Assembly: GCA_016195085.1 (NCBI GenBank)
Contig: JACQAG010000022.1
Location: 10,700 to 74,699, forward strand
Length of the DNA stretch: 64,000 bases
DNA from: Pseudomonadota bacterium
GTDB taxonomy: Bacteria; Pseudomonadota; Alphaproteobacteria; SHVZ01
Direction: 5' to 3'
A model generated the notes under the pieces. That model saw only the letters and a program-made list of their open reading frames with translations. It made no database searches and was not told where the DNA came from. A program made the translations under genes and the position numbers. Position 1 is the first letter of the stretch; the number at the start of each line of letters is the position of its first letter. Shown here piece by piece: positions 2,625 through 57,240 of the stretch.

Positions 2625-2800
2625 GCCCCCACCCGTCGGCGACGGCCGCGCCGGTTCCTCCCGGCGCGGCGTTGGGGATGGGAGGACCCGTCCCCAACCG
2701 TCCCGACCCTCCCCCACGCTCACGCATGGGGGAGGGAGCGGGAGGTCCATCTCGGCTCCCTCCCTCGCCGTCTTCGGCGGGGGAGGGGTGGGGTGGGGGC
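2625..2800. repeat. GC-rich structured palindromic intergenic repeat (subtype 1: CCCCCACCC / GGGGTGGGGG with CCCTCCC / GGGAGGG hairpins)
   Basis: Nested inverted repeats; same family seen at nine other loci in this window. Confidence 0.8.
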
Positions 2801-2825
2801 AATGCGTCATCCGTGATGCTCGTGG

Positions 2826-3377
2826 TTAGCGCACGCGGCGGGTGAAGAAGCGCAAATTCGGCCCGGCCATGCGGTAGAACACCTTGTCGGCCCGCTGCAC
2901 CGGTCCCAGCCGGTCGTAGAAGCGTCGCGCGCGATCGTTCCAGGGATCGGCCGTCCAGTCGATCTGATCGACGCCGCGCTCGCCGGCAAGCTTGGCCAGC
3001 GCATCCATCATCTGCCGTCCCACGCCCTCGCCGCGCCAGCGCTCGGAGACGAATATGTCCTGGATGAAGAAGGTGCCCTGGCAGACCGCAACCGAATACA
3101 CCTGCACGAAGGCCAAGAGGCCGACGGCGATGCCGTCGCGGTCGGCGAGCAGGACCTCGATGCCGGGAGCCGGCGGGCCGGAGCCGTTGGCGGGGCTGAA
3201 GACATTGCTGCGGATGGACTCGGCCATGACCCATCGCGGCGCCGGCGCTTGGATGCCGTAGAAGGCCAAGAGCTCCCGGCTGAGATTTGCGATCGCATCG
3301 GCGTCCGCCGCCGTCGCCAGGCGAATGCCAAGCGTTGACATGCTCCCACAATCGACGAATGCCGCCATATCGGTCAA
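2826..3377 (-). CDS. GNAT family N-acetyltransferase
   Basis: Motif A RWRGEGVGRQMMDALAKLA; true start may be the internal Met at about 3341 (MSTLGIRLATAAD). Confidence 0.7.
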   Translation of the reverse strand: MTDMAAFVDCGSMSTLGIRLATAADADAIANLSRELLAFYGIQAPAPRWVMAESIRSNVFSPANGSGPPAPGIEVLLADRDGIAVGLLAFVQVYSVAVCQGTFFIQDIFVSERWRGEGVGRQMMDALAKLAGERGVDQIDWTADPWNDRARRFYDRLGPVQRADKVFYRMAGPNLRFFTRRVR

Positions 3378-3550
3378 GCACTTGGCCTGTCCCGTGGGTT
3401 TCGGCTAGCGTGATGATTCCGAAGTTCGTCGGCGAACTTCGGAATCTGAATCACGCTAGATTCAATAGAGTAGTGGCCCGCTTATCCCTGAAATTCGCTG
3501 ACGAATTTCAGGAGCGGGACACTAGCGTCGCGGGGGAAAGGGGAGGCCGG

Positions 3551-4081
3551 GTGAAGGTCCTGCACCTGCTGAGACACGCCAAATCGAGCTGGGAGGAGGC
3601 TGGGATCGAGGATCACGACCGCCCGTTGGCGGAGCGCGGCCGCAACGCCGCTGAGGCGATGGGCCGCTATCTCGCCACCGCCGGGATCGATCCGGGACTG
3701 GTGCTCGTGTCCTCCGCCCTGAGAACCCGCGCCACCTTCGAGCTGGCGGCCGAGGAGCTCGCCGAACGGCCAAAAAACCGGGTTCTGCGCGACCTCTATC
3801 TCGCCAGCAGCGCCGAGCTCCAGGCCCGCATCCGGGCGCTCGACGACGCTCTGGGCTCGGTCATGCTCATCGGCCACAACCCCGGCATGCACGATCTCGC
3901 CCGCAGCCTCGCTGGTTCGGGTGATGCCGAGAGCCTGAAGCGGCTCAACCAGAAATACCCGACCGGAGCCCTTGCCAGCCTCGAATTCCCGGTCGCGCGC
4001 TGGCGCCAGGTGAAGTCCGGAGGCGGCCGGCTCGCGCGCTTCGTTTTGCCGAAAGAACTGATGCCAACGAAGCCCCCTTAG
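3551..4081 (+). CDS. sixA: Histidine phosphatase family protein (SixA-like phosphohistidine phosphatase)
   Basis: RHAKS catalytic motif (LLRHAKSSWEE), later GHNPG; GTG start at 3551 inferred, upstream ATG possible. Confidence 0.6.
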   Translation: MKVLHLLRHAKSSWEEAGIEDHDRPLAERGRNAAEAMGRYLATAGIDPGLVLVSSALRTRATFELAAEELAERPKNRVLRDLYLASSAELQARIRALDDALGSVMLIGHNPGMHDLARSLAGSGDAESLKRLNQKYPTGALASLEFPVARWRQVKSGGGRLARFVLPKELMPTKPP

Positions 4082-4158
4082 ATCTGTTTGGAATCGTTCA
4101 AGACTGTCACATAAATCCGGTTGACCACACCTTCTGTGCCCGGCTTAGCTGGCGGCGC

Positions 4159-5772: not shown

Positions 5773-5807
5773 CCTCTCCTCGAAGTAGAACTGCGGCGCG
5801 CCTGTCG

Positions 5808-5995
5808 GCCCCTCTCCCGCCTGGGGGTGGACTGTGGGAGGGGGTGAGGATCACCCCCTCCCCAACCCTCCCCGGGGCGGGAGAGGGCTGGGGTGAGGGT
5901 CGGACGGGAAGCGTCGATGACCTTCGCCGAAATTCTTGCGACCCTCACCCGCCTCGCTCGCGCTCGGCACCCTCTCCCGCGGTGCGGGAGAGGGG
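5808..5995. repeat. GC-rich structured palindromic repeat, composite (subtype 2 with CCCTCACCC / GGGTGAGGG and CCCTCTCCCGC / GCGGGAGAGGG)
   Basis: Nested inverted repeats between convergent CYTH-CHAD and SDR genes. Confidence 0.8.
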
Positions 5996-6014
5996 CATTC
6001 GGCAAATTCTGCGT

Positions 6015-6821: not shown

Positions 6822-6863
6822 GCCTGCCCCCGGATGCGGATTTTCGCTATAATGGCATGATCG

Positions 6864-7166
6864 GTGACGGCTCCTAAGAGCCTAGCGGGAGAACCGGCTT
6901 TGAATACCGAGCAGGCCCTCGATGTGCTGCACGAGGCGTTGCTGGTGACCTTGATCATCTCGGCGCCGATGATGCTCATCGGCATGATCGTCGGTACCGT
7001 CATTTCTCTCATCCAGGCGATGACCCAGATCCAGGAAACCAGCCTCGCCTTCATCCCGAAGATGCTGGCGCTGTTCATCGCGCTCTCGCTGTTTCTGCCG
7101 TTCATGCTGGGCGAGCTCGCCAAGTTCACCGAAAACATCATGGACCGCATCGTCAGCATCAGTTGA
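6864..7166 (+). CDS. fliQ: Flagellar biosynthetic protein FliQ (type III export apparatus)
   Basis: Two-TM 88-aa core, same layout as FliQ; start is GTG at 6864 or TTG at 6900 with a GGGAGA SD. Confidence 0.8.
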   Translation: MTAPKSLAGEPALNTEQALDVLHEALLVTLIISAPMMLIGMIVGTVISLIQAMTQIQETSLAFIPKMLALFIALSLFLPFMLGELAKFTENIMDRIVSIS

Positions 7167-7191
7167 CGGCGGCGCGAGGGATCCCTAGTCG

Positions 7192-7971
7192 ATGCCGTTC
7201 GGCGTGCCGCTCCAGCAGTTCGTGCCCGGCGAGATCTTCGCCTTCATCGTGGTCTTCGCGCGGCTGGGCTCGACCTTCACCTTGCTTCCGGGCTTCGGGG
7301 AGTCCTTCATCCCCGGCAGGGTCCGGCTCGGCATCGCTCTTGCGGTCACCTTCGTCGTGACACCCTTGGTGCGGCCGATCCTGCCGCCCTTGCCCGACGA
7401 CATGGTACGCTTGCTCTCGATCCTGTTCACCGAGGTGATCACCGGCATGTTCATCGGCGTCGTCACCCGGCTTCTGATCACCACGCTTGACACCGCGGGG
7501 ACATTCATCTCCTTCCAGACCGGGCTGTCCGCCGCGCAGGCCTTCAACCCGGCCCTGTCCCAGTCGGGCACCATCGTCGGCGCGTTCCTGGCGCTCGCCG
7601 GGGTGGTGGCGCTCTTCGCCACCGACATGCATTATCTCGTGCTGCGCGCGCTCGTCGACAGCTACACGCTGTTTCGCCCGGGCTCGCCGCCGATGTTCGG
7701 CGACATGGCCTTCATGTTCGCCCAGCTCGTCAGCCAGAGCTTCAAGATGGCCCTCCAGATCGCGATGCCCTTCGTCGTCCTCGGGCTCTTGTTCAATGTG
7801 GTGCTCGGGCTTATCTCCAGGCTGATGCCGCAGATCCAGATCTTCTTCGTCGGCATCCCGGTGCAGCTCTTGGGCGGAGTCCTGATCCTCGGCCTCACCA
7901 GCTCGGCCGTGGTCACGTTCTTCCTGGCGAACTTTCAAGATACGCTGCAAGCGTATCTCACTCCGAGGTAA
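7192..7971 (+). CDS. fliR: Flagellar biosynthetic protein FliR
   Basis: 259-aa polytopic membrane protein directly after fliQ, FliR-like N-terminus MPFGVPLQQFVPGEIFAFIVVFARLG. Confidence 0.8.
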   Translation: MPFGVPLQQFVPGEIFAFIVVFARLGSTFTLLPGFGESFIPGRVRLGIALAVTFVVTPLVRPILPPLPDDMVRLLSILFTEVITGMFIGVVTRLLITTLDTAGTFISFQTGLSAAQAFNPALSQSGTIVGAFLALAGVVALFATDMHYLVLRALVDSYTLFRPGSPPMFGDMAFMFAQLVSQSFKMALQIAMPFVVLGLLFNVVLGLISRLMPQIQIFFVGIPVQLLGGVLILGLTSSAVVTFFLANFQDTLQAYLTPR

Positions 7972-7975
7972 GCCC

Positions 7976-11164: not shown

Positions 11165-11347
11165 TCACCCTCTCGCTGCCGGCTGCACCAGATTGGCAAA
11201 CAGACGGAAGGCGTCGGGAACCAGCCAATCCGGCTGGTGGGCGAGCGCCAGGCTGACATGGGTGTGGCGGCCGGATCCGATCGGCGCCGACAAGAGCCCG
11301 CCTTCGAGCGGGTCCTCGCCGGGGTCGGCCATGGCGAGGAGCGGCAC
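11165..11347 (-). pseudogene. Orphaned 3' fragment of the PIG-L deacetylase gene (60-aa ORF duplicating the C-terminus of the 843-aa protein)
   Basis: MPLLAMADPGEDPLEGGLLSAPIGSGRHTHVSLALAHQ...FANLVQPAARG is about 88% identical to residues near the C-terminus of ORF 12091..14622. Confidence 0.65.
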
Positions 11348-11370
11348 GTAGGCCGGACCCGGTCGGTCAG
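11176..11370. repeat. Direct repeat copy A (about 190 bp, roughly 88% identical to 12153..12345) flanking the HepT/MntA cassette
   Basis: Aligned by eye: ctgccggctgcaccagattggc...gctgacatgggtgtggcggccgg...tcggccatggc. Confidence 0.75.
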
Positions 11371-11376: not shown

Positions 11377-11724
11377 TTACTTTTTTCCATGTTCCGCCAG
11401 CGCCCTCAACTGGCTGCTGAGCTCAGGCAGCTTCGCCTGGATCACATCCCAGACGATCTCCCAGTTGACGCCCGCATAGTGGTGGATGAGGCGGTCGCGC
11501 ATGCCGGCGACGTCCTGCCACCGAATTGCCCTGTGCTTTTTGCGAAAATCCGGAGAGAACCCCTTTGCGGCCTCGCCGACGATTTCGAGGTTCCGCACGA
11601 CGGCATCCTGCACCATCGTGTCCTCGAGAAACCGCTGATAGCTCAGGCCGCCGGTGTAGCGGCCAATTCTGCCGATCGCTTCGACGATGTCCTGGACAAG
11701 CTGCGCATCCTGGCGCTTAGCCAT
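11377..11724 (-). CDS. hepT: HepT-like (DUF86) nucleotidyltransferase-substrate-binding toxin
   Basis: 115 aa; conserved RNLEIVGEAAK and R..LIHHY motifs typical of HepT; overlaps partner gene; lower-GC cassette. Confidence 0.7.
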   Translation of the reverse strand: MAKRQDAQLVQDIVEAIGRIGRYTGGLSYQRFLEDTMVQDAVVRNLEIVGEAAKGFSPDFRKKHRAIRWQDVAGMRDRLIHHYAGVNWEIVWDVIQAKLPELSSQLRALAEHGKK

Positions 11725-12037
11725 ATGCGAGAGCGCTCCGGATGTCGTCAGCGATTTCCTTTACGCGAATGCTCTCGAGTCCATCGGGCGTTAGGATTTC
11801 CACCTTCCTTCCGAGGAGCTTCTCCAGGTGCTCCGATAGACCCAGGAAGTTGTCGTAGGTCGGCCGCTCGAACTCGACGAGAAGGTCGATGTCGCTCCGC
11901 TCGTTCTGCTTACCTTTGGCGTAGGAGCCAAAGAGGCCGATCTTTCGTACGGAATACCTCTCAAGCAGCTCGGCGTTCTGCCGTAGCGTGCGAAGGATTC
12001 CCTGCCGGGTAAGTTCGCTTTTCGACGGTTTTTTCAT
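11717..12037 (-). CDS. mntA: MntA-like minimal nucleotidyltransferase antitoxin
   Basis: 106 aa; GLFGSYAKG...DIDLLVEF nucleotidyltransferase motif; 8-bp overlap with hepT. Confidence 0.7.
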   Translation of the reverse strand: MKKPSKSELTRQGILRTLRQNAELLERYSVRKIGLFGSYAKGKQNERSDIDLLVEFERPTYDNFLGLSEHLEKLLGRKVEILTPDGLESIRVKEIADDIRSALAYG

Positions 12038-12090: not shown

Positions 12091-14622
12091 TTAAGGGTTC
12101 GATGATCTGTCGAGGGCGGCGGCTGCTCCACCCAGGCGCCCGCCACCTATCCCTGCCGGCTGCACCAGATTGGCGAAGAGGCGGAAGGCGCCGGGAACCA
12201 GCCGATCCAGCTGATGGGCCAGCGCCAGGCTGACATGGGTGTGGCGGCCGGCTCCGATCGGCGCCGACAGAAGCCCGCCTTCGAGCGGCGCTTCACCGGG
12301 GTCGGCCATGGCCAGCAGCGGCACATAAGCCGGATCCCAGGATGCAGCGAAGGAGAGGCCGCGCTCCTTCTGCCATCCCGCCCAATCGGCGGGGCCGATG
12401 GCATTGGGATAGGTCAGGAGCGGATGCCCGGACGCCAGAATCCGGATCGGTGCCGCCGGATCGGCCACCCGCCAACGCAGCGACGGCTGGCCGATGGCGA
12501 TGCGCTTGGGCGGCGTCACCGCCGCGTCCCAGCCATCGCCGGGCCGGTGATATTGGCTGACGAGATGCCCGCCTCGGCTCACATAGTCCTTGAGCCGCGC
12601 CGGCGCTGCCGCCGGAAGCCGGCCGAAGGCCTTGATGCCGATGACGATGGTCTCGAAACGGCCGAGATCGCCGCCGAGGATCTCGTCGTCGGAGAGCCGC
12701 TCCACCTGAAGCCCGATCTCTTCGAGCCAGCCGGCGACGCGATCGAGGCCGCCTTCGACATAGCCGATACGAACCCCCGGGGGAAGCGCCAGGTCGACCA
12801 CCAGAAGATCGAGAGTGGCGGGCTCGATCCAGCCGGTGGTGCCGATATGGGGATAGTGCTGACGGCGCACGCGCCCATGGGCGATACCGTCGGCCACCAC
12901 CTGCCAGCTTGCGTGACCCGGGGCTGGCGTCGCCGCGGTGAGGCTGATCTCGGCGGCCTCAAACGGACCGAGGCGAAGCGGAGGTGCCACCGCCTCGGCA
13001 CCGAGGAGCCGGAGCCGGGTCTGGATCGGCGCCGGCGTGTGGTTGCGCGCCCCGATGCGGACCTCGAGGCGCGGCTGCGAGCCGGCGACCACCACCCGGG
13101 CCTCAGGCGCCGGTGTCAGCTCCAGGGGCGGGACCTCGAGGGGCAGGATTTCCGGCGCCACCGCATCCTCGATGTCGACGCCATCGACGGTGTAGCCGAG
13201 CCGGCCTTCGATCGGCGCATTGGCGGCCAGCGGATCGAAGCGCTGCCGAAACGGCGCGTGGGATCCCGGGATGTATCGAAGCGTGCCCTCTGCCGTCGGC
13301 CCCTCGACCGTGCCGGCTTCGCTGGTCGCGGACCCGCGAACCGTGAGCGGCTTCCCGCCTTGGAAAAGGACAAGGCGTCCCGTCGCGGGCTGGCCCAGGA
13401 CCACCATTGCCGGCAGCTCCAGGCGGGCGACCAGGGAGAGGGCGAGCCGGCTCGCCCGGGCAAGCTGGCGGCGCTTGATGCCGAGCCGGTGCTCCAAATC
13501 CTCGGCGATCGTCCGTGCGAGCCCACCCAGAGTCTGCAGGACATGGTCGATGGCGCCCAACGCTTCATGCACCGAAGCGGCGACGCGATCGAAGTCCGGG
13601 AAGGCCTCGATCGCCGCCTCGATCGCCCGGTCGGCTTGGCGCAAGGCATCGCTGGGGGCGCCCTTCATGCCGGTCGCCAGATCGCCGAGCCGCCGCGGCA
13701 ACCCATCGAAGATCGATCCCTCGGCATTCACCCGCTGCAGCCGCGTTTGCGCCAGATTGAGCGCGATCGCCGGCGCGTCTTCCTCAGGGCGCCAGCGCCC
13801 CATGCCCTGGCTTCGGTGACAGAGGCGCGACCATTCGCCGATCTCGGCGTAAGTGGCGCCGAGCCAGCGATCGAAGCCGCCGACATCGACGGTGAGCGTC
13901 GCCGGCGGCGGCGGCTCGGCGTCGTCATAGGTCGCACCGGCGCCGGAATAAGCCGGCAGATACAGCTTGGCGATGCGCCATGGGCGGAGGCCGGCTTCGA
14001 TCTGCTCGGGGAAGCGGGCCGGGTCGGCGGCCGCCTCGAAGGCCTTGAAGGTGGCGCGGGTGACGGCGCGATGATGGCCGTGCTGTCCCGGCACATCGAG
14101 GAAGGTGGGCGACACGATGTCGGGGCGGCTCCGGCGGATGGCCTCCACCAATCGCTCCAGGAGCCGGTCCTCGCCCCAGATTGCGGTGGTCGCCTCCGGC
14201 GTCTTGGCGAAGCCGAAATCGCTTAAACGATCGCCGAACCCTTGCTCCAGCCAGTCAACCTCCATGCCGAGAACGGCGGCGGCTCTCTCCATCTCATGGG
14301 AGCGTATGAGCGCCAGCGCCTCGCCGGATTCCGGGCCGAGCGCGTTCTGTCCGCCGCCGCCGCGGGTGGCCGAGACGTAGATCACGCGGGCACCGTCGCC
14401 TTTGGCGAGCCGGGCCAAGAGCGCGCTCGTCTCGTCGTCGGGATGCGCTCCGGTCATCATGAAGCTCACCACCGAGCGCAGCGGCAGCAAGGCCTGCCAT
14501 AGAAGGAGGAGTGGGCTCTCCCGCGACTGGCGAAGGATGCGGCGTTGCTCTGGAGTCATGGCAAGATCCTGGCGAATAGGCTCGCCAAGGCAAGCGAATT
14601 GCTGCGGGATGACGATTGACAT
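12091..14622 (-). CDS. Large PIG-L/LmbE-family deacetylase domain protein (N-terminal deacetylase, long central region, C-terminal ThuA/GATase1-like region); C-terminus remodelled by cassette insertion
   Basis: N-terminal AHPDDE motif (MMTGAHPDDETSALL) plus HGHHRA; 843 aa. Confidence 0.6.
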   Translation of the reverse strand: MSIVIPQQFACLGEPIRQDLAMTPEQRRILRQSRESPLLLLWQALLPLRSVVSFMMTGAHPDDETSALLARLAKGDGARVIYVSATRGGGGQNALGPESGEALALIRSHEMERAAAVLGMEVDWLEQGFGDRLSDFGFAKTPEATTAIWGEDRLLERLVEAIRRSRPDIVSPTFLDVPGQHGHHRAVTRATFKAFEAAADPARFPEQIEAGLRPWRIAKLYLPAYSGAGATYDDAEPPPPATLTVDVGGFDRWLGATYAEIGEWSRLCHRSQGMGRWRPEEDAPAIALNLAQTRLQRVNAEGSIFDGLPRRLGDLATGMKGAPSDALRQADRAIEAAIEAFPDFDRVAASVHEALGAIDHVLQTLGGLARTIAEDLEHRLGIKRRQLARASRLALSLVARLELPAMVVLGQPATGRLVLFQGGKPLTVRGSATSEAGTVEGPTAEGTLRYIPGSHAPFRQRFDPLAANAPIEGRLGYTVDGVDIEDAVAPEILPLEVPPLELTPAPEARVVVAGSQPRLEVRIGARNHTPAPIQTRLRLLGAEAVAPPLRLGPFEAAEISLTAATPAPGHASWQVVADGIAHGRVRRQHYPHIGTTGWIEPATLDLLVVDLALPPGVRIGYVEGGLDRVAGWLEEIGLQVERLSDDEILGGDLGRFETIVIGIKAFGRLPAAAPARLKDYVSRGGHLVSQYHRPGDGWDAAVTPPKRIAIGQPSLRWRVADPAAPIRILASGHPLLTYPNAIGPADWAGWQKERGLSFAASWDPAYVPLLAMADPGEAPLEGGLLSAPIGAGRHTHVSLALAHQLDRLVPGAFRLFANLVQPAGIGGGRLGGAAAALDRSSNP
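12153..12345. repeat. Direct repeat copy B (inside the 3' end of the intact PIG-L gene)
   Basis: See copy A. Confidence 0.75.
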
Positions 14623-14688: not shown

Positions 14689-15945
14689 ATGATGAAGCGG
14701 TGGCTATTCGGCCTGGTGCTGAGCTCGACGCTCCTGACCTGGGGCCTCACCAGCGCCCAGCCCGTCGAGATCGAGTACTGGCAATACACCTTCGCCCAGC
14801 GGGTTCAGGCGATCGACGAGCTGATCAAGCGCTTCGAAGCGGCCAATCCCGGCATCAAGGTGAAGCACGTCAACGTGCCCTACGACGATTTCCGCCTCAA
14901 GATCGCCGCCGCCATCCCCGCCGGGCAGGGTCCCGACGTGGTGCAGCTGTTCTATGGCTGGCTCCAGGACTATCTGAAGGCGAAGCTCTTGCAGCCGCTG
15001 CCGGCCGATCTTTTCAACGCCGCCGAGATCGAGCGCGACTTCTTCCCCTTGGTGAAGGAGATGCGCGTCGACGGCCAGTATTACGGCCTGCCGACGGCGG
15101 TGCGCTCGCTGTCGCTGTTCTGGAACAAGAAGCTGTTCCAGGAGGCGGGTCTCGATCCCGCGAAACCGCCTCAGACCCTGGCCGAACTCACCCTGATGGC
15201 GAAGAAGCTGACCAAGCGCGACGCCGGCGGCAATCTGCTGCAGGCCGGCATCGCGCTCGATCCCGGCGGTCAGGACCATCACTGGATCCGCGAGGTGCTG
15301 ATCCGTCAGATGGGCGGCAAGCCCTATTCCGATGACGGGCGCAAGATCGCCTATGACACCGATGCCGCAGTCAAGGGTGTGGCCTGGTACACCGATCTCG
15401 TCGCCAAGGAGAGGGTGAGCGAGTTCGGCTTCCTGACCGATGCGGTGACCGCCTTCAAATCGGGCAAGGCCGGGCTCACCATCGATGGTTCCTTCCGGCT
15501 CGCCGCCTTCGACGGCCAGGCCGGGCTCGACTACGGCGTGTCCGAGCTGCCCGGCCATGACGGCATGAAATCCAACTTCGCCTCCTACTGGGTGAACGGC
15601 ATCACGCCCAAGGCGACCGGCGCCAAGAAGGAGGCCGCCGCCAAGTTCCTGAAATTCATCACCACGCCGGAAGCGATGGAGCTGTGGCTGGAGAAGGTGG
15701 GCGAGCTGCCGGCCCGCAAGGCGGTGGCCGAGCGGGACGCGATCAAGAACCACCCGAAATACGGCGCCTTCATCCGCGGCCTCGCCTACGCCCAGGCGAC
15801 GTTCTTCGTCAATGAGACCGGCCAGCGCAAGGTCTTCCTGGACCTGGTCGACCGCATCGCCATCAAGAAAGTGGCACCCAAGGACTCCGTGCACGAGGCG
15901 GCGCTGGAGGAGCAGAAGATGCTGGACGCCTTCTACAACAAGTGA
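14689..15945 (+). CDS. ABC transporter substrate-binding protein, family 1 (carbohydrate type)
   Basis: Signal peptide MMKRWLFGLVLSSTLLTWGLTSA; SBP_bac_1-like sequence. Confidence 0.8.
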   Translation: MMKRWLFGLVLSSTLLTWGLTSAQPVEIEYWQYTFAQRVQAIDELIKRFEAANPGIKVKHVNVPYDDFRLKIAAAIPAGQGPDVVQLFYGWLQDYLKAKLLQPLPADLFNAAEIERDFFPLVKEMRVDGQYYGLPTAVRSLSLFWNKKLFQEAGLDPAKPPQTLAELTLMAKKLTKRDAGGNLLQAGIALDPGGQDHHWIREVLIRQMGGKPYSDDGRKIAYDTDAAVKGVAWYTDLVAKERVSEFGFLTDAVTAFKSGKAGLTIDGSFRLAAFDGQAGLDYGVSELPGHDGMKSNFASYWVNGITPKATGAKKEAAAKFLKFITTPEAMELWLEKVGELPARKAVAERDAIKNHPKYGAFIRGLAYAQATFFVNETGQRKVFLDLVDRIAIKKVAPKDSVHEAALEEQKMLDAFYNK

Positions 15946-15957
15946 GCGGACGACAAG

Positions 15958-16122
15958 ACCCTCACCCGCCTCGCTAACGCTCGGCACCCTCTCCCGCAGG
16001 GGGTGGGATTTGGGAGGGGGTGCGCCGCACCCCTCCCCGATCCTCCCCGGGCGGGAGAGGGGCCTCAAATACTCGTCCTCATCTCCCTCTCCCGCGCCGC
16101 GGGAGAGGGTTGGGGTGAGGGT
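15958..16122. repeat. GC-rich structured palindromic repeat, composite (subtype 2 plus a GGGAGGGGGTG core)
   Basis: Between SBP and permease genes; shares the module GACCCTCACCCGCCTCGCT..CGCTCGGCACCCTCTCCCGC with loci at 5962 and 27984. Confidence 0.8.
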
Positions 16123-16158
16123 CGTTCTTAGGGCTACACCGAAACGCAACGGGACCGC

Positions 16159-17043
16159 ATGATCGATCGCCTCACTCTTCGCCAAAGGCAGGCCTTGTGG
16201 GCGTGGGCGTTCCTGGCGTTGCCGGCGGTCTTCTACGTGTCCATTCGCTTCTATCCGGCGGCGCAAGCCTTCGCCATGTCGCTGACCGACTGGAACATCG
16301 TCGGCCGGGCGCGGTTCATCGGCGCCGACAACTATGTGCGGCTCGGCGCCGATCCGGTGTTCTGGAGGGTGATGGGCAACACCTTCACCTATCTCGCGGT
16401 CGGCGTCGCCGTCACCATGACCATCGCCTTCGTCATCGCCTTCTACCTCGACCGCGTGCGCTTCGGCCACGGACTCTTGCGGGCACTCTACTTCATCCCG
16501 CACCTCGCCACCGCGGTTGCCATGGCTTGGGTCTGGCGCTGGTTCTACCAGCCCGTACCGGTCGGCGCCTTCAACGATGCGCTGGCCTCCATCGGCTTCG
16601 GCCAGCAGCCTTTTCTGCGCTCCACCAGCCAAGCGCTTTATGCCGTGCTGGCGCCGGCGATCTGGGCCAGCCTCGGCTTCCAGGTCGTCATTCTGCTGGC
16701 CGGGCTGAAGGCGATCCCTGAGCATTATTACGAAGCCGCCGAGATCGACGGCGCCGGCCGCTGGCGGATCCTCATCGAGATCACGCTGCCGCAGCTCCGC
16801 CCCACGCTCATCTTCCTCGTGGTGGTGAGCTCGATCGGCTTCCTTAGGATCTTCGACTATGTCTACGCCATGACCCAGGGCTCCGGCGGGCCGCTCGACG
16901 CAACGAAGCCTCTGGTGCTGATGATCTTCATCACCGCCTTCGGCCATTTCGAGATGGGCTATGCCGCCGCCTTGACCGTCGTCCTCTTCCTCATCCTGCT
17001 CGCCATCTCCTTGGCGCAGCTCCGGCTCATGAAGGCCCGATGA
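16159..17043 (+). CDS. ABC transporter permease (MalF/UgpA-like)
   Basis: Six TM, EAA-like motif region (EAAEIDGAGRWRILIEITLPQLRP). Confidence 0.8.
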   Translation: MIDRLTLRQRQALWAWAFLALPAVFYVSIRFYPAAQAFAMSLTDWNIVGRARFIGADNYVRLGADPVFWRVMGNTFTYLAVGVAVTMTIAFVIAFYLDRVRFGHGLLRALYFIPHLATAVAMAWVWRWFYQPVPVGAFNDALASIGFGQQPFLRSTSQALYAVLAPAIWASLGFQVVILLAGLKAIPEHYYEAAEIDGAGRWRILIEITLPQLRPTLIFLVVVSSIGFLRIFDYVYAMTQGSGGPLDATKPLVLMIFITAFGHFEMGYAAALTVVLFLILLAISLAQLRLMKAR

Positions 17044-17858: not shown

Positions 17859-19354
17859 TGGCGCGACCGAAGGACGAGCCTTTTCCGGCACCGGTCTACA
17901 AGGAGACGGTGCTGGCGCCCTTGTTCGAGGGGGTGAAGCGCCACCACTGGCGCTATCAGATGCGCATCAACCGGGCGAGCGCGGTCATGCTGGCGGAGTG
18001 CGGCCTCATCCGCCCGAGCGAGGCGAAGGCGATCCTGGACGCGCTCGACGACATCGTCGCCACGCTCGACGTGGCGAAGCTGGTTTACACCGGCGAGCAC
18101 GAGGATTTCTTCTTCTACGTCGAATCCGAGCTGACGCGCCGCCTCGGTGTGGCGATCGCCGGCAAGCTCCACACCGGGCGCTCGCGCAACGACATCGACC
18201 ACACCGTCTTCAAGCTCGCCTTGAAGGAGCGGATCATTGTTTTTGCCGGGGCGCTGATCGGCCTCATTGAGACGACGCTCGGCGTCGCCGAGGCGAACCG
18301 CGCGACCCTTGTGGTGGCCTATACCCACGGCCAGCCGGCGCAGCCGACGACCTTCGGCCACTATCTCGGCGCCTTGATCGAGCAGCTCCTGCGCGATCTC
18401 GAGCGGCTCTCCGATGCCGCCCGCTATCCCGACAAGTCCAGCATGGGGGCGGCCGCGATCACCACGTCGGGCTTCGGCCTCGACCGCGCCCGCATGGCCG
18501 ATCTCCTGGGCTTCGCCGAGGTGCAGGAGAATTCCTATGGCTGCATCGCCTCGGTCGACTACGCGACCAGCGTCTACGCCCAGCTCAAACTCCTGTTCGT
18601 CCATCTCGGCCGCTTCGTGCAGGATCTGAATGCCTGGTCGGGATTCGAGGTGGGCCATCTCTATGTGCCCGACGCCTATGTGCAGATCAGCTCGATCATG
18701 CCGCAGAAGCGCAACCCCGTGGCGATCGAGCATCTGCGCCTCATGCTGTCGCTCGCCGCCCAGCGGGCGGAAGCGGTGATCTTCACGGTGCACAACACGC
18801 CCTACACCGACATGAACGATTCCGAGGGCGAGGTGCAGGCGGCGGGCTACGAAGCCTTCGACACGGGCCTGCGGGCGCTCACGCTCATCGCCGGCTTTCT
18901 AGGTGCCGTCCGCATCGACGAGGCGAAGGTGCGCCGGCACATCGAGGAGGCCTGCATCACCGTGACCGAGCTTGCGGACTCGCTCGTCCGCAAGGAAGGC
19001 CTCTCCTTTCGCCAGGCCCATGAGGTGGCGGCCCTGCTCGCCCGCCGCATGATCGATAGCCGCGAGATCTTCCGCACCGTGCCCTACGGCGCCTTCCTGG
19101 AGGCCTTCGCCGCTGTTGCCGGAAGAGAGCCGGGGTTGACCGAAGCCGAGTTCCGCCTTGTGACCACGCCCGAGCACTTCATCGAAGTCCGCACCATGCC
19201 GGGCGGCCCGGCGCCGGCTTCCCTATCCGCCAGCTTCGAGCGCTACCGGCGCCAGCTCGATCAAGCCCGGAGCTGGCTCAATGACTATCGCGGCCGGATG
19301 GAGCAGGCGGCGGAACGTCTGGACGAGGCGGCCTCCCGCCTGCAGCGGGGCTAG
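17858..19354 (+). CDS. Lyase class I (fumarase/aspartase) family protein, argininosuccinate-lyase-like, embedded in the sugar ABC operon
   Basis: GRSRNDIDHTVFKL and TFGHYLG... signature regions; ATG overlaps permease stop (ATGA). Confidence 0.65.
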   Translation: MARPKDEPFPAPVYKETVLAPLFEGVKRHHWRYQMRINRASAVMLAECGLIRPSEAKAILDALDDIVATLDVAKLVYTGEHEDFFFYVESELTRRLGVAIAGKLHTGRSRNDIDHTVFKLALKERIIVFAGALIGLIETTLGVAEANRATLVVAYTHGQPAQPTTFGHYLGALIEQLLRDLERLSDAARYPDKSSMGAAAITTSGFGLDRARMADLLGFAEVQENSYGCIASVDYATSVYAQLKLLFVHLGRFVQDLNAWSGFEVGHLYVPDAYVQISSIMPQKRNPVAIEHLRLMLSLAAQRAEAVIFTVHNTPYTDMNDSEGEVQAAGYEAFDTGLRALTLIAGFLGAVRIDEAKVRRHIEEACITVTELADSLVRKEGLSFRQAHEVAALLARRMIDSREIFRTVPYGAFLEAFAAVAGREPGLTEAEFRLVTTPEHFIEVRTMPGGPAPASLSASFERYRRQLDQARSWLNDYRGRMEQAAERLDEAASRLQRG

Positions 19355-19380
19355 TCTTGGATTTGGAGATGCTAGCGATA

Positions 19381-19482
19381 GCCCCCACCCTAGCCCTCCC
19401 CCACATGCGTGGGGGAGGGAAAAGAAGGGCGCAGCTCTTACTCCCTCCCTCGCCGAAGGCGGGGGAGGGCCGGGGTGGGGGC
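19381..19482. repeat. GC-rich structured palindromic repeat (subtype 1)
   Basis: GCCCCCACCC..CCCTCCCCC..GGGGGAGGG..GGGGTGGGGGC. Confidence 0.8.
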
Positions 19483-19511
19483 ATGCGCGTTCCCGAGAGT
19501 CGGTCCTAGCC

Positions 19512-20579
19512 GTGGCGCGGGTGACGCTGACGGGCGTGAGCAAAAGCTTCGGGACGGTCGAGGTCGTGCACGATCTCGACCTCGAGGTCGCCGACACGGA
19601 ATTCGTGGTACTGGTCGGCCCGTCGGGCTGCGGCAAGTCGACGATCTTGAGGATGATCGCCGGCCTGGAAGAGGCGAGCCAGGGTGACATCCTGATCGGC
19701 GACCGGCTGGTCAACAATGTCCCGCCCAAGCATCGCGACATCGCCATGGTCTTCCAGAACTACGCCCTCTATCCGCATATGAGCGTCTATCGGAACATGG
19801 CCTTCGCGCTCCGCGCCAAGCGCCTCGAGCCGGCCGAGATCGACCGCAAGGTCAAGGCGGCGGCGGCGATCCTCGGCCTGGAGGAGTATTTGGAGCGGCG
19901 GCCGGGCGAGCTCTCCGGCGGACAACGCCAGCGGGTCGCCATGGGCCGCGCCATCGTGCGCGATCCCGCGGTGTTTCTCTTCGACGAGCCTTTGTCCAAT
20001 CTCGATGCCAAGCTCCGCACCCAGATGCGGGCCGAGATCAAGAAGCTGCACCAGCGCTTGAGGACCACGATCATCTATGTGACGCACGACCAGGTCGAGG
20101 CGATGACCTTGGCCGACCGGATCGTCATCTTGCGCCAGGGCCGGGTCGAGCAGATCGGCACGCCGGGCGAGGTTTATCGCAGGCCCGCCAATCTGTTCGT
20201 CGCCGGCTTCATCGGCACGCCGGCGATGAATTTCCTCCCCGCCCGCCTCGCCGAGGGCGGTGTCGTGCTCGCCGACGGCAGTCGATGGTCCTTGCCCAGG
20301 CGACCAGCGGCGGAGGCGGGGCGGGAGGTCATCATCGGGCTCCGCCCGGAAGATGTGCGGCTTGCCGACGGCCCGGCTGCCGGGCGCTTCGAGGCAAGGG
20401 TCTCCATCGTCGAGCCCCTGGGCCCGGAATCGCTCATCACCGTCCTCTTCGCCGGTCAGGAAGTGGTGGCGAAGGCCGATGGCGACGCCGCTCCCGGCAT
20501 CGGCACCCCGCTCCAGCTCGAAGCCAACCTCCAGCGCCTGCATCTCTTCGATCAGACCAGCGGAATGGCGCTGATTTAG
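19512..20579 (+). CDS. ABC transporter ATP-binding protein (MalK/UgpC-like, with C-terminal TOBE domain)
   Basis: GPSGCGKST, LSGGQRQRVAMGRA, LFDEPLSNLD; GTG start at 19512. Confidence 0.8.
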   Translation: MARVTLTGVSKSFGTVEVVHDLDLEVADTEFVVLVGPSGCGKSTILRMIAGLEEASQGDILIGDRLVNNVPPKHRDIAMVFQNYALYPHMSVYRNMAFALRAKRLEPAEIDRKVKAAAAILGLEEYLERRPGELSGGQRQRVAMGRAIVRDPAVFLFDEPLSNLDAKLRTQMRAEIKKLHQRLRTTIIYVTHDQVEAMTLADRIVILRQGRVEQIGTPGEVYRRPANLFVAGFIGTPAMNFLPARLAEGGVVLADGSRWSLPRRPAAEAGREVIIGLRPEDVRLADGPAAGRFEARVSIVEPLGPESLITVLFAGQEVVAKADGDAAPGIGTPLQLEANLQRLHLFDQTSGMALI

Positions 20580-22526: not shown

Positions 22527-22628
22527 GCCCCCACCCCGTCCCTCCCCCGCATTCGCGGGGGTGGGTGTCGGAGAGGCGACATCGTGCCCCCTCCCTCGCC
22601 GCAGGCGGGGGAGGGATGGGGTGGGGGC
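22527..22628. repeat. GC-rich structured palindromic repeat (subtype 1)
   Basis: CCCCCACCCCGTCCCTCCCCCGC..GCGGGGG....GGGGGAGGGATGGGGTGGGGG. Confidence 0.8.
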
Positions 22629-25434: not shown

Positions 25435-25469
25435 GCTCCCTCTCCCGCTGGGAGAGGGTTGGGGTGAGG
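25435..25469. repeat. Partial structured repeat (hairpin plus 3' arm, subtype 2)
   Basis: CCCTCTCCCGCtgGGAGAGGGTTGGGGTGAGGG. Confidence 0.7.
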
Positions 25470-25477
25470 GAAGGTCG

Positions 25478-25843
25478 ATGAGCATCGCTGGCGCGCGCAA
25501 GCTGCGCCGCCACCTGACCGATGTAGAGCGTCGCCTATGGACGGCGCTGCGCAATCGATAGCTCACCGGATTCAAGTTTCGTCGCCAGCACGCGCTGGGA
25601 CCCTATGTGTTGGACTTCTACTGTGAGCCCCACAAGCTGGCGATCGAAGTCGACGGCGGCCGGCACGGTGAAGCGAACGAGCACGACACCATCCGCACCG
25701 CATGGCTGGAAGCGCGGGGTTGCCGTGTCCTCAGGTTCTGGAACAACGAAGTGCTTGGCAATCTGCCCGGCGTCCTGGCAGCGTTGCCGGCTTCCCCTCA
25801 CCCGCTCGCTCGCGCTCGCGACCTCTCCCGACGGGAGAGGTAA
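25478..25843 (+). pseudogene. DUF559 (Vsr-like endonuclease domain) gene interrupted by an in-frame TAG at 25559-25561
   Basis: MSIAGARKLRRHLTDVERRLWTALRNR-stop-LTGFKFRRQHALGPYVLDFYCEPHKLAIEVDGGRHGE...; both halves in the same frame. Confidence 0.65.
25794..25841. repeat. Partial structured repeat (5' arm plus hairpin, subtype 2) overlapping the 3' end of the DUF559 ORF
   Basis: CCCTCACCCGCTCGCTCGCGCTCGCGACCTCTCCCGACGGGAGAGG. Confidence 0.7.
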
Positions 25844-27983: not shown

Positions 27984-28119
27984 CCCTCACCCGCCTCGCT
28001 GCCGCTCGGCACCCTCTCCCGCCCGGGGAGGGTTGGGGAGGGGGTGATCCTCACCCCCTCCCATATTCCACCCCCGGCGGGAGAGGGAGGGGCCCGCGTC
28101 ATCGCGGGAGGGTGAGGGG
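27984..28119. repeat. GC-rich structured palindromic repeat, composite (subtype 2)
   Basis: GACCCTCACCCGCCTCGCTGCCGCTCGGCACCCTCTCCCGC...GGGAGGGTGAGGGG. Confidence 0.8.
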
Positions 28120-28122
28120 CTG

Positions 28123-31628: not shown

Positions 31629-31663
31629 CACGGGCCACTACCAAGATTGAATGCCCCCACCCT

Positions 31664-31756
31664 GACCCTCCCCCGCCTTCCGGCGGGGGAGGGAATTGGA
31701 TGCTGCCTTTGACTCCCTCCCTCGCGCGTAAGCGCGGGGGAGGGCGGGGGTGGGGG
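31664..31756. repeat. GC-rich structured palindromic repeat (subtype 1)
   Basis: GCCCCCACCCTGACCCTCCCCCGC..GGGGGAGGG...GGGGGTGGGGGC. Confidence 0.8.
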
Positions 31757-49794: not shown

Positions 49795-49801
49795 CGCGGA
49801 A

Positions 49802-50182: not shown

Positions 50183-50274
50183 TGAATTTTAGACAACTGC
50201 CGTATTTCAGCAACCCCAAATACGGCCTTTGAGCAAAATTAATTTAACCGGGGTGCGGAGGCGTTTTTCCGGCC

Positions 50275-51354: not shown

Positions 51355-51418
51355 CTGCGGCGGGCGGCTGCCTCTCCTTACGCCTTCGTGACCGAGCCGT
51401 TGATAGCTACGAGGAACC

Positions 51419-52417: not shown

Positions 52418-52422
52418 GGGCC

Positions 52423-54327: not shown

Positions 54328-54345
54328 CGCGACAAACTCAGACTG

Positions 54346-54447
54346 CCCCCACCCCGACCCTCCCCCACGCTGACGCGCGGGGGAGGGAGCAAGAGGTGAC
54401 CTCTCTACTCCCTCCCCCAGCTTGCTGGGGGAGGGTCGGGGTGGGGG
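54346..54447. repeat. GC-rich structured palindromic repeat (subtype 1, canonical copy)
   Basis: CCCCCACCCCGA-CCCTCCCCC-loop-GGGGGAGGG-spacer-CCCTCCCCC-loop-GGGGGAGGG-TCGGGGTGGGGG. Confidence 0.85.
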
Positions 54448-54463
54448 CGATCGGCGCTCGGCT

Positions 54464-55981
54464 TCAGCGCGTAGTGATGCGGCCCTCAAGGGCGGGCGAG
54501 ACCGTGCCTTTGGCGGCGATGTAATCCATCACCTGGTTCGCCGTCAGCTTGGCGGCGCTGGGGTCGATGAGCGACTTGCCCTTCTTCAAGACCTCGAAGC
54601 CGTCGCCGCCGCCGGCGATGTAGTCGATGGTTGCCACCTTGTAGACCCGGCCCGGATCGAGCGGCTGCCCGCCGACCTTGACCTCGAGCACGCGGCTGCC
54701 CGCGGCCTTCTTCGGATCATAGGCGAAGCTGAGACCGGAGACCTGGAGGAAGCGGCCTTGCTTCTCTTCGACGCGCCCGACGCTGTGCTCCAGTGCCGCC
54801 AGGAGATCGCTGCCCTTGAGCTCGAGCAGCACCGTGGTGTTGCCGAAGGGCAGCTCGGTGAACACGTCGCGCCTGGTCAGCTGATAGCCCGGATCGTAGG
54901 TGCGGTTGCCGCGGATGCCGCCGCCATTGGCGAGCGCCACCTCGGCGCCCAAGGCGGCCCGCATCGCATCGGCGATGAGGTTGCCGATCGCCGCCTCTTC
55001 CGCCCGCACCACGGTGGTGCGGCTGTCGAGCGGCGTGGCGGAGGTGCCGATCTTGACGCCGAGCTCGGTGTCGAGCTTGTCGGTGTGGCGCTTGACGAGG
55101 GCGGCGATATCGGGATCGGGTGCCACGTTGTAGACCGCATGCATGCGCCAAGCCGGCACCACGGTGATCCGAGGCGGCCCGGATTGCTGCGCCGCACGGG
55201 TGACGGTGAGATCGACCGCGGCCAGGAAATGCGCATCGAACCCGGCCTTGTGGATGAGCGTGCTGCCCTCGTAGAAGGTGATCGGGTCGTGGTCGTGGCC
55301 GCCGAGTACGAGGTCGATACCCTTGACCCGGCGGACGAGCTCGCGGTCCTCGGCGATGGTCAAATGGGTGATCGCCACCACGATTTCCGCACCTTGGTCC
55401 TTGAGCGCCTTCACCGCTTCGCCGGCGCTCTCGATCATCGGCGCGAAGATGATCTCCTTGCCGGGGCTGGAGAGCGTCACGGTCTCGGGTGTGGTCAGGC
55501 CGAAGAACCCGAGCTTGAAGCCGCCGACCTCCTTCATGACGGTCGAGAGCGCGGTGCCGAACGGCTTCTTGTCGGGGCCCAGAACATTGGTCGCGAGCCA
55601 GGGGAATTTCGACTCCGCCATGCGCTGCTTCAGGACATCGTCGCCGAAATCGAACTCGTGATTGCCGAAGATCGCCAGATCGAGGCCGACAGCGTTCATC
55701 AGCTCGACCATTTGCTGGCCTTTGGTCAGCCCCGACATGAGCGAGGGCGAGATCAGATCGCCGCCGAAGGTGGTGACGGCGTTCTGGGCTTGGGCGCGCT
55801 CCTGCTTGAGCAACGTCATCAGCGGGGCGAAGCCGCCCCAGCCGCGCGCGGGCGCGATCTCGTAGACGTCGTTGGTGTGGAGGAAGGTGATCTTTGCGGT
55901 TTGGCCCCAGGCCGTGCCGGCGACGAGCGCCAAGGCAAGGACGGCAGCCAGCAGCCGTGAACGACGAAGGAATTCCCACAT
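54464..55981 (-). CDS. Bifunctional metallophosphatase/5'-nucleotidase (UshA-like), secreted
   Basis: Signal peptide; metallophosphoesterase motifs HTNDVYE, GGD, GNHEFD, ITHL, GGHDH; C-terminal 5'-nucleotidase domain. Confidence 0.85.
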   Translation of the reverse strand: MWEFLRRSRLLAAVLALALVAGTAWGQTAKITFLHTNDVYEIAPARGWGGFAPLMTLLKQERAQAQNAVTTFGGDLISPSLMSGLTKGQQMVELMNAVGLDLAIFGNHEFDFGDDVLKQRMAESKFPWLATNVLGPDKKPFGTALSTVMKEVGGFKLGFFGLTTPETVTLSSPGKEIIFAPMIESAGEAVKALKDQGAEIVVAITHLTIAEDRELVRRVKGIDLVLGGHDHDPITFYEGSTLIHKAGFDAHFLAAVDLTVTRAAQQSGPPRITVVPAWRMHAVYNVAPDPDIAALVKRHTDKLDTELGVKIGTSATPLDSRTTVVRAEEAAIGNLIADAMRAALGAEVALANGGGIRGNRTYDPGYQLTRRDVFTELPFGNTTVLLELKGSDLLAALEHSVGRVEEKQGRFLQVSGLSFAYDPKKAAGSRVLEVKVGGQPLDPGRVYKVATIDYIAGGGDGFEVLKKGKSLIDPSAAKLTANQVMDYIAAKGTVSPALEGRITTR

Positions 55982-56270
55982 GGCCCAGCTCTCCCCGCGA
56001 AAGCGACAATCTTCGAATTCGGCGGGAAGCCTAGCGCGGACAAGGCCGAGGAGGCTAGAGCGCTTGCGGCGAAGCCGCACCGGGAGCGGGGCGGCCCTCA
56101 CGACCCAGATTCCCTTTGGACGTTCAAGCAACTGTGCTTTGACCGGAGGGGCCAAGGAAGCAAGAATGCCGGCCCTGCGGCGGAACGGCCGCAGGGGGGA
56201 GGGCCGGACGCGTTCCGGCTTCGGTTCCTCCCGAGGGGGGCCTTTCAAATAAGCAGGGGAGACAAAAGCA

Positions 56271-57137
56271 ATGCTCGACGACGTCAAGAACGTGTGGCCG
56301 GATTCCTCGGTATCCCGCCGTGGTTTCGTGTTCACCTCGGCCTTCGCCGCCGGTTTTGCGCTCACGGTTCAGCCGATCGCCGCGCAAACCGTGATCTCGA
56401 CCGACAGCACCGGGCTCGAGGCCGGCATGATCGAGGTTCCGACCTCAAGCGGGAACATTCCAGGTTATCGCGCCCTGCCGGCCCAAGGCGGTCCGTTCCC
56501 TGTCGTGTTGGTGCTGGAGGAAATATTCGGGCTCCATGAACACATCAAAGATGTCTGCCGGCGCTTCGCCAAGCTCGGCTACTACGCCATCTCGGTCGAG
56601 TACTATTCTCGCTTGGGCGATGTCTCGAAATTGGCGGATATCCAGCAGGTGCTGGCGATCGTCACCAAGACACCCGATGCGCAGGTGATGAGCGACCTCG
56701 ATGCCGCAGTCGCATTTGCCAAGGCATCCGGAAAGGCCGATACCGCTCGCTTGGGCGTCACCGGCTTCTGCCAGGGTGGACGCATGACCTGGCTTTACGC
56801 CGCGCACAACCCCGGGCTGAAGGCAGCGGTCGCTTGGTACGGTCCGATCGCGGCTCCGACCAATGATGTGAGACCGAAGAATCCCATCGACCTGGTAGCG
56901 GAAATGAAGGCGCCCGTCCTCGGCCTCTACGGCGCCGCCGACACGGGGATCAAGGTCGAGGATGTCGAGAAGATGAAGGCGGCGATGGCGGCCGCAAACA
57001 AGCCGGCCGAATTCATGATTTATCCGGAAGCCCCGCATGGCTTCAACGCCGACTACCGGGCGAGCTACCGCGAGGCCGCGGCCAAGGACGGCTGGCAGCG
57101 CCTGCAGGCCTGGTTCAAGAAAAACGGGGTCGCTTAG
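56271..57137 (+). CDS. Dienelactone hydrolase family protein with Tat-like signal
   Basis: SRRGFVFTSAFAAGFAL; GFCQGG nucleophile elbow; HGF near C-terminus. Confidence 0.75.
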   Translation: MLDDVKNVWPDSSVSRRGFVFTSAFAAGFALTVQPIAAQTVISTDSTGLEAGMIEVPTSSGNIPGYRALPAQGGPFPVVLVLEEIFGLHEHIKDVCRRFAKLGYYAISVEYYSRLGDVSKLADIQQVLAIVTKTPDAQVMSDLDAAVAFAKASGKADTARLGVTGFCQGGRMTWLYAAHNPGLKAAVAWYGPIAAPTNDVRPKNPIDLVAEMKAPVLGLYGAADTGIKVEDVEKMKAAMAAANKPAEFMIYPEAPHGFNADYRASYREAAAKDGWQRLQAWFKKNGVA

Positions 57138-57141
57138 TAGG

Positions 57142-57240
57142 ACCCTCACCCCGACCCTCTCCCCCGGTGCGGGAGAGGGGGCACGACACTCGCCCTCTAC
57201 ACCCTCTCCCGCATCGCGGGAGAGGGCTGGGGTGAGGGTC
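57142..57240. repeat. GC-rich structured palindromic repeat (subtype 2, canonical copy)
   Basis: CCCTCACCCCGA-CCCTCTCCC-loop-GGGAGAGGG...CCCTCTCCCGC-loop-GCGGGAGAGGG-CTGGGGTGAGGG. Confidence 0.85.

Follow-up and report, generated by a model that had tools for sequence, protein, structure and literature searches.

The question raised by this locus is what kind of element is repeated in it, and what has spread that element. We analyzed a 64,000-nt stretch of an alphaproteobacterial genome (GenBank assembly GCA_016195085.1, contig JACQAG010000022.1, positions 10,700 to 74,699), hereafter called the window, whose GC content is approximately 67%. A preliminary description had reported ten intergenic palindromic loci belonging to one mosaic family. 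All ten were found at the coordinates given there, and the family is real and mosaic. The loci are copies of the known BoxC / PIT / "triplex motif" (TM) repeat superfamily. Three points were established from the sequences: the architecture of the repeat with its three-way covariation, an oriented association of the repeat with genes of the DUF559 family, and the occurrence of the repeat-gene-repeat cassette as a unit in unrelated contexts and within host genes. The repeat family is already known; its link to DUF559 appears unreported.

We compared the occurrence of the repeats with chance expectation. The 9-mer CCCTCCCCC occurs 16 times in the window, against 1.3 expected. A structural scan, in which a 9-nt pyrimidine arm had to be followed by a loop, the matching purine arm, a short linker and a third arm rich in G, detected 15 units in the window and none in ten Markov-random windows. 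The motif map gave ten clean clusters, with only four orphan 9-mers within genes.

The conserved unit is one hairpin with a mirroring third arm, designated here as the half-unit, and not an outer stem enclosing two hairpins as was proposed. The half-unit is approximately 35 nt long. Its C/T arm and the complementary G/A (purine) arm, each of 9 nt, are separated by a loop; a linker then leads to a third arm, also of 9 nt and rich in G, that mirrors the purine arm. The linker is 3 nt in 13 of the 15 window half-units and 19 nt in the other two. Subtype 1 has the hairpin CCCTCCCCC/GGGGGAGGG with outer arms CCCCCACCC/GGGTGGGGG, and subtype 2 the hairpin CCCTCTCCC/GGGAGAGGG with outer arms CCCTCACCC/GGGTGAGGG; the changes between them are matched in every arm. 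The former "outer stem" corresponds to the two third arms of an inverted pair. In eight elements, counted arm by arm because whole-element MAFFT alignment mis-registers the loops, all 9 positions of these arms are paired, as are 8 or 9 of the 9 positions in the hairpins. Single-strand folding of the elements gave z-scores of -4.8 to -9.8, and all 15 window half-units obeyed the purine-motif triplex rule (G on G, A or T on A, antiparallel). In four of the five subtype-1 copies, hairpin 2 has a G.T wobble (CCCTCCCTC against GGGGGAGGG; 2758-2799, 19443-19481, 22589-22627 and 31715-31756), always on the strand bearing the third arm; E. coli copies have a conserved G.A mismatch instead.

Two further parts of the composite copies were interpreted in terms of the half-unit. 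The reported module of approximately 40 nt was found at 5942, 15959 and 27984, and in diverged form at 25795. It is, however, a composite of the third-arm complement, the 19-nt long linker variant and a hairpin arm, and it forms the right end of the DUF559 cassettes described below. We considered the module as a DUF559 coding tail and dropped this explanation in favor of a long-linker half-unit variant, which is also present in two loci of other genomes (L010 and L022). The GGGAGGGGGTG core noticed earlier in the composites is a nested palindrome within hairpin 1, at 5836, 16012 and 28036.

Covariation of the three arms was analyzed in the window and 80 loci of other genomes (81 sequences, approximately 1.1 Mb). 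In the forward test, the sequence 3' of perfect pyrimidine/purine hairpins was examined. The commonest third arm always mirrored the purine arm, an A being matched by either T or A, and at least 10 variant arm triples were found. The third arm was GGGTGAGGG 3' of GGGAGAGGG, GGGTGGGGG or GGGAGGGGG 3' of GGGGGAGGG, GGATGGGGG 3' of GGGGGAAGG, GGATGAGGG 3' of GGGAGAAGG, and AGGTGGGGG 3' of GGGGGAGGA. The converse, unbiased test started from the purine arm and the third arm. The upstream arm was the Watson-Crick partner of the subtype in 41/58 cases for subtype 2, 19/30 for subtype 1 (beside 10 further G.T-wobble variants), 9/9 for subtype 3, and 11/13 for subtype 4. The exceptions were mostly C-to-T changes, giving G.T wobbles on the strand with the third arm.

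A natural comparison is provided by a syntenic relative (locus L090), whose sugar-binding protein is 87% identical to that of the window. L090 has a subtype-1 pair (7257-7384) at the site where the window has a subtype-2 composite (15946-16158). The two sites agree in the right flank and in part of the spacer, and the three arms have all changed together. This difference reflects either an in-place subtype conversion or repeated insertion at one site. The "outer stem" of L090 contains an A.A mismatch, and over 15930-16175 the window sequence recurs unchanged in two strain variants (L083 and L084). The claim of two subtypes related by compensatory changes therefore held in both the converse test and the L090 site. 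In mixed-subtype pairs, the mirror rule was kept within each half and the third arms were no longer mutually complementary.

Copying yields direct or inverted repeats only, and the mirror relation thus points to triplex geometry, or to a ligand of the same symmetry. Because a purine-motif triplex is stated to be impossible in RNA (PMC4666352), selection on DNA structure is more likely than selection on RNA structure. The earlier proposal, which left DNA and RNA as equals, is thus retained as structural selection and narrowed toward DNA. The persistence of mirror covariation in mixed pairs suggests that an intrastrand DNA triplex, or a structure of the same geometry, is under selection in bacteria.

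BoxC and PIT elements have reportedly also been dealt with by Bachellier et al. in 1999 and Hoyne et al. in 2000. The E. coli BoxC repeat later became the PIT element and then the TMECO "intrastrand triplex motif" (Holder et al. 2015, PMC4666352). The pattern given there reads CCCTCNCCC N3-6 GGGNGAGGG N3 GGGNGAGGG, and 3610 TM copies were reported across 262 proteobacterial genomes. The single strand of the E. coli relative forms a purine-motif triplex in vitro, and TM loci vary unusually between E. coli strains; no mobility gene was ever found near TMs, nor any function beyond local instability (PMC4666352). We searched the window with this pattern. The strict form had one exact match, at 25438-25470, and a relaxed form (loops of up to 12 nt, sixth third-arm position free) had 8 matches against 0 expected. 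Subtype 2 fits the pattern except for loop length, and subtype 1 differs at one third-arm position. The features that the window copies share with the published motif are the half-unit CCCTCNCCC-loop-GGGNGAGGG-N3-GGGNGAGGG, a third arm mirroring the purine arm, intergenic sites, frequent inverted pairs and conserved single hairpin mismatches. The preliminary description had named no family, and had regarded a match to a well-characterized one with established function as the outcome that would speak against it. The half-unit does fit the published BoxC/PIT/TMECO pattern, and the function of that family is not established.

The link to DUF559 was found within this genome. The repeats at 25435 and 25794 had been listed as separate, and they actually mark the two ends, left and right, of a single cassette with a DUF559 pseudogene. 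A 122-codon open reading frame (ORF) with one in-frame TAG (25559-25561) fills the space between them on the plus strand (25478..25843). Its product matches DUF559 (PF04480, E=7.5e-38), of the Vsr-like PD-(D/E)XK endonuclease family, and the solved N. gonorrhoeae "endonuclease-like protein" (PDB 3HRL, E=2.6e-23). The left TM (25438..25470, plus strand), which is the sole strict TMECO match, ends with its third arm 7 nt 5' of the ATG. The frame continues through the third-arm complement, the 19-nt "module" and the right hairpin; this right TM (25795..25841, minus strand) consists of CCCTCACCC, a diverged module linker and the hairpin CCTCTCCCGACGGGAGAGG.

The pair at 5810-5994 has the same arrangement without the gene. 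Its left TM (5810..5899, plus strand) has the hairpin CCCTCTCCC..GGGAGAGGG, the loop of which houses a nested subtype-1-like palindrome (5836-5862), and the third arm GGGTGAGGG. Its right TM (5942..5994, minus strand) has CCCTCACCC, the 19-nt "module" linker and the hairpin CCCTCTCCCGCGGTGCGGGAGAGGG. A mini-ORF starting at 5917 (MTFAEILATLTRLARARHPLPR, right TM included) lies between the left half-unit and the module-bearing right half-unit, and 5900..5941 (plus strand) is a probable DUF559 ORF remnant with an ATG, few codons and the C-terminal tail. The locus is probably an internally deleted DUF559 cassette that has retained the start and tail and lost the body. In a collection of 5.8 billion proteins, the closest homologue of the pseudogene product was intact (125 aa, 76% identical) and shared the tail (...PASPHPLARARDLSPRER). 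It is encoded on contig JACOSK010000070.1 of assembly GCA_016178915.1 (same metagenome-assembled genome [MAG], different contig), in a cassette that follows the fdhD stop codon and precedes the start of a mobA-like gene, and the two ends are as in the window.

We then asked how DUF559 genes are flanked in other genomes. The domain part of the repaired pseudogene protein was used as a query, giving 318 relatives in one-genome-per-species contigs, and the best 80 of the 318 loci were kept. These DUF559 proteins are 50-63% identical to the query, their loci range from 43 to 72% GC, and they span Alpha-, Beta-, Gamma- and Deltaproteobacteria, Dehalococcoidia, Actinomycetota, Methylomirabilota, Nitrospiraceae and others. 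Within approximately 170 nt of the gene ends, 64 of the 80 loci had two or more exact subtype 9-mers, and 6 had none. The third-arm motif was found upstream of 51% of the DUF559 genes, its complement downstream of 59%, and both at 39%. The corresponding values were 2.2%, 1.7% and 0 for the other ORFs of 150 aa or more in these loci (n=1433). The association is oriented, as convergent half-units, with their third arms toward the gene, flanked DUF559 genes 30 times, compared with 1 divergent and 7 tandem cases. Cassettes with both ends recognized (n=31) were 379-559 bp long, with a median of 436 bp.

Several loci of this set showed additional arrangements. Tandem half-units, spacers and a DUF559 gene form BIME-like mosaics in L030 (6839-7522) and L041 (2912-3376), and in L041 two subtypes alternate three times. 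A scan of viral contigs gave just three short partial matches. In E. coli K-12, ycjD is the sole DUF559 gene; its 3' end is hairpin-like, and TMECO no. 9 lies approximately 170 nt 3' of it. A partial copy of the last ~40 nt of ycjD is located downstream of the gene and is followed by TMECO no. 9 (L081, 5041-5900). Of 5426 complete E. coli genomes, 3378 have the gene, and in the others an efflux operon occupies the region. We also considered co-evolution of DUF559 and flank subtype as evidence of recognition. The nearest neighbor had the same subtype in 43/64 cases against 28.7 expected, a value inflated by near-duplicates, and this comparison was not used.

The cassette behaves as a discrete unit. 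In several pairs of 20-kb loci it is the sole common DNA: 440 nt at 83% identity between L057 and L061, 441 nt between L057 and L076, and 460 nt between L012 and L053, which belong to one MAG. Cassette-only sharing was likewise found between L033 and L041 and between L049 and L055. At least seven independent host genes contain an in-frame cassette: each is a long ORF in which the sequences on either side of the cassette match one and the same host protein. The hosts are IleRS, in which the cassette splits the anticodon-binding domain; MetRS, in which it precedes the tRNA-binding domain; a HrpA-like helicase; a Type ISP enzyme; a MmeI-like enzyme; and a DUF1156 methylase, in two phyla. In-frame DUF559 domains were noted at L001 3543-7325, L013 8081-10732 and L052 7283-12103 and in L002, L020 and L074. 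In L036, a cassette is located between rpsP and rimM and its frame runs on into rimM. No intein or Hint domain was detected in the host ORFs in Pfam at E<=1e-5. The repeat ends of the cassettes translate as PSPxGRG..GEG linkers. Cassette lengths modulo 3 were distributed 13/9/9, showing no multiple-of-three bias, so that in-frame cassettes are probably survivors of selection and not a design feature.

Three gene-less arrangements were observed beside the cassettes: a single hairpin with both third arms; convergent pairs with centers of 34-51 nt, some of them beginning with ATG; and divergent pairs with spacers of 10-85 nt, which are commonest in the window, at 21-23 nt.

Based on these results, we consider it moderately probable that BoxC/TM repeats together with the cassette that brackets DUF559 form one system, with gene-less pairs as its non-autonomous relatives and DUF559 acting in the spread of both. 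A half-unit that is transiently single-stranded would fold into a hairpin with the third arm lying over the purine arm, as a purine-motif intrastrand triplex. The DUF559 nuclease would recognize or cut TM ends, and host repair or recombination would then copy or move the cassette and its gene-less relatives, as RAYT does with REPINs or as a homing endonuclease does. DUF559 has been placed in the same clade as Vsr and the homing endonuclease I-Bth0305I (PMC3424549), and Vsr-like endonucleases splitting host genes have been described (PMC2677866). A stronger form of this proposal can be offered only tentatively, at somewhat below even chances. TM repeats may be the terminal inverted repeats of an unrecognized pan-bacterial selfish cassette with DUF559 as its only gene. 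The enzyme would recognize folded three-armed DNA, possibly via the conserved G.T or G.A mismatch, and so drive copying of the cassette and of the gene-less forms. The cassette would survive inside essential genes since its repeat ends read as flexible Pro/Ser/Gly linkers.

Several observations weigh against a role of DUF559 in the spread. To our knowledge, nuclease activity or DNA specificity is known for no DUF559 protein. The set of 80 loci consists of the closest relatives of a single query and includes many MAG contigs. A cognate DUF559 for the subtype-1 elements, the majority in the window, was absent from the sequence available. Protein and flank subtype co-vary weakly, with a mean protein identity of 0.582 within and 0.572 between flank subtypes, and E. 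coli strains without ycjD also have TMs. Other cassettes are kept at syntenic positions over 72-87% nucleotide identity, so movement is rare. The divergent gene-less form, with the third arms outside, is a circular permutation of the cassette ends and is not a simple deletion derivative. No target-site duplication was visible, and no clean empty site was found, as the ycjD-less E. coli strains represent a replacement, while in L090 a deletion spans the lyase/ATPase junction and the other site has a different subtype. The published study did not see the triplex in vivo (PMC4666352).

The main rival explanation, which we regard as unlikely, is that DUF559 is a parasite of the repeats. TM pairs would spread otherwise, by host recombination, replication slippage or structure-induced breaks, and a homing-type DUF559 would cut gene-less convergent pairs and be copied into them with the TMs as homology arms. 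The confinement of the gene almost entirely to convergent pairs (30, versus 1 divergent) would be expected on this account. So would the gene-less convergent pairs with 34-51-nt centers in related loci, the tandem inverted TMECO pairs of E. coli (PMC4666352, Table 1), and the placement of the protein in the clade of I-Bth0305I (PMC3424549). The weak co-variation of protein and flank subtype and the TMs remaining in ycjD-less E. coli agree with it as well. However, the cassettes in IleRS, MetRS and HrpA brought TMs into sites that in other organisms are coding sequence free of TMs; therefore, either the whole TM-gene-TM unit was inserted or a TM pair was inserted first. Moreover, several gene-less centers begin with ATG and resemble deletion remnants, not virgin targets.

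It is rather improbable that the repeats are purely cis-acting structural elements, such as terminators, mRNA 3'-end stabilizers or nucleoid or replication signals, maintained at their sites by selection as in one role proposed for REP elements, with DUF559 adjacency incidental or regulatory for that gene only. The siting of the elements fits such a role, since all ten loci lie 5-127 nt past a stop codon and five lie between convergent genes, in agreement with the reported preference for convergent genes and operon ends; the predicted single-strand folds are very stable, and the orthologous site in L090 also has a pair. Nevertheless, no T run follows the GC-rich hairpins at any of the ten loci, so that they do not qualify as intrinsic terminators, and earlier experiments found no promoter or terminator activity of PIT elements (PMC4666352). 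The copy at 2626 is oriented like the others even though its neighboring gene is on the opposite strand, near-identical motifs occur in genomes of 43-72% GC in many phyla and also in coding regions, and the DUF559 association is strong and oriented. Strong folds and compensatory changes would equally suit a structured non-coding RNA family, an explanation we consider very improbable: the Rfam search proposed in the preliminary description gave 0 matches at the gathering threshold in the window, introns included, copies occur in either orientation relative to transcription, and the mirror rule of the third arm has no RNA explanation, the triplex being stated not to form in RNA (PMC4666352). We assign a similarly slight chance to repetitive extragenic palindromic (REP)/BIME-type elements mobilized by RAYT, an IS200/IS605-like Y1 transposase. 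Intergenic palindromes, inverted doublets and mosaic clusters give the two a shared general look, but the three-arm mirror architecture is foreign to REP and the flanked gene encodes a PD-(D/E)XK protein, not an HUH enzyme. REP elements have a GTAG/CGTC tetranucleotide at the repeat head, and the ends of the ten loci lack it.

The other elements of the window were as follows. An inverted pair of subtype-1 half-units is located at 2626..2799, with the left outer arm at 2626-2634 and hairpin 1 at 2707-2736. The two are separated by an insert of approximately 70 nt (2635-2706) made of small nested G/C palindromes (GGTTCCTCCC..GGGAGGACC; TTGGGGA..TCCCCAA). Subtype-1 divergent pairs are located at 19382..19481 and 22528..22627 (spacers of 23 nt), 31654..31756 (21 nt) and 54346..54447 (22 nt, both hairpins perfect). 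All five subtype-1 copies are oriented alike regardless of the direction of the flanking genes. Among these elements, subtype 2 is represented by a divergent pair at 57143..57238 (spacer 22 nt) and two composites. The composite at 15959..16121, a divergent pair, lies within the sugar ABC operon, as had been noted, and has a left TM with the module linker and nested palindrome and a canonical right TM (16085-16121). The composite at 27984..28118 has a left TM with the module and nested palindrome and a degenerate right half. At the counterpart of 19240-19560, where the window has a subtype-1 element, L090 (10300-10480) has a lyase shortened by 38 aa joined directly to an ABC ATPase shortened by 15 aa, reflecting either a deletion or an assembly collapse at the repeat site.

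The reported density of about one element per 6 kb agrees with ten loci in 64 kb, although the spacing is uneven. A 22-kb stretch (31.8-54.3 kb) contains no family element, versus ten in the other 42 kb. A separate repeat was found around a HepT-like/MNT-like toxin-antitoxin pair on the minus strand (~11377-12037). A 192-nt direct repeat, 89% identical, flanks this pair (11169-11360 and 12146-12337), and its second copy is the 3' end of the adjoining PIG-L family gene. The syntenic relative L090 does not have the pair, which has the appearance of a small module whose insertion duplicated the end of the gene.

BoxC/PIT has been known in E. coli since the 1990s. The DUF559 family comprises a very large number of "endonuclease domain-containing" proteins, for which a structure has been solved and no role is known. 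The specific, oriented association of TMs with DUF559 makes both long-standing questions experimentally tractable. If the stronger form of our proposal is correct, the TM-DUF559 system would be a second system of repeats and a domesticated nuclease beside REPIN-RAYT, and would provide a function for E. coli YcjD and many homologues. The in-frame DUF559 inserts in IleRS, MetRS and HrpA have consequences for how genes are annotated and how "fusion" proteins are treated. No description of the DUF559-BoxC/TM link, the subtype-1 variant or the long-linker and nested forms was found in the open-access papers searched; an earlier description elsewhere is possible.

We compared the system with those already described. 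The window copies differ from published BoxC/PIT/TMECO elements in several respects: subtype 1 (GGGGGAGGG / GGGTGGGGG) is outside the published pattern, the loops, at 7-12 nt, exceed the published length, some copies have a 19-nt linker or nested insertions, and pairs are mostly in divergent order with spacers of 21-23 nt. The window copies also come from an uncultured groundwater bacterium of high GC content. The published motifs have no nearby mobility gene, whereas the motifs here bracket DUF559 genes. The literature on REP/REPIN and RAYT is said to include Nunvar 2010, Bertels and Rainey 2011, and Ton-Hoang 2012. That system also consists of short dispersed intergenic palindromes, often in inverted doublets, with one or a few nuclease-type genes inside inverted copies of the same repeats and mostly vertical inheritance of the gene. 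RAYT is an HUH Y1 transposase acting on single-stranded hairpins, whereas DUF559 is a Vsr-like PD-(D/E)XK protein, and the third mirror arm and in-frame host-gene cassettes belong only to the repeats described here.

Vsr-like homing endonucleases (I-Bth0305I, PMC3239194; "fractured genes", PMC2677866) belong to the same structural clade (PMC3424549), and are likewise selfish nuclease genes in conserved host genes. DUF559 has the predicted nuclease fold of a family with proven homing enzymes. Those enzymes reside in group I introns or between split-intein halves and have extra DNA-binding domains, whereas here the gene is bracketed by TMs, intron or intein signatures are absent, and in several hosts the ORF continues in frame through the cassette, which is predicted to be translated within the host protein. 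Rickettsia palindromic elements (RPE), reportedly described by Ogata et al. in 2000, are similarly tolerated in frame within protein-coding genes; they are geneless and unrelated in sequence, and a triplex architecture has not been described for them. Bacterial miniature inverted-repeat transposable elements (Correia/NEMIS, ERIC and RUP) differ in that no target-site duplication was seen here, the partner gene is not a known transposase, and the ends of the gene-less and gene-bearing forms are circularly permuted. They share with the present elements a length of ~100 bp, intergenic location and terminal inverted repeats in common with a gene-bearing partner, as the same half-units that form the gene-less pairs also bracket the DUF559 genes.

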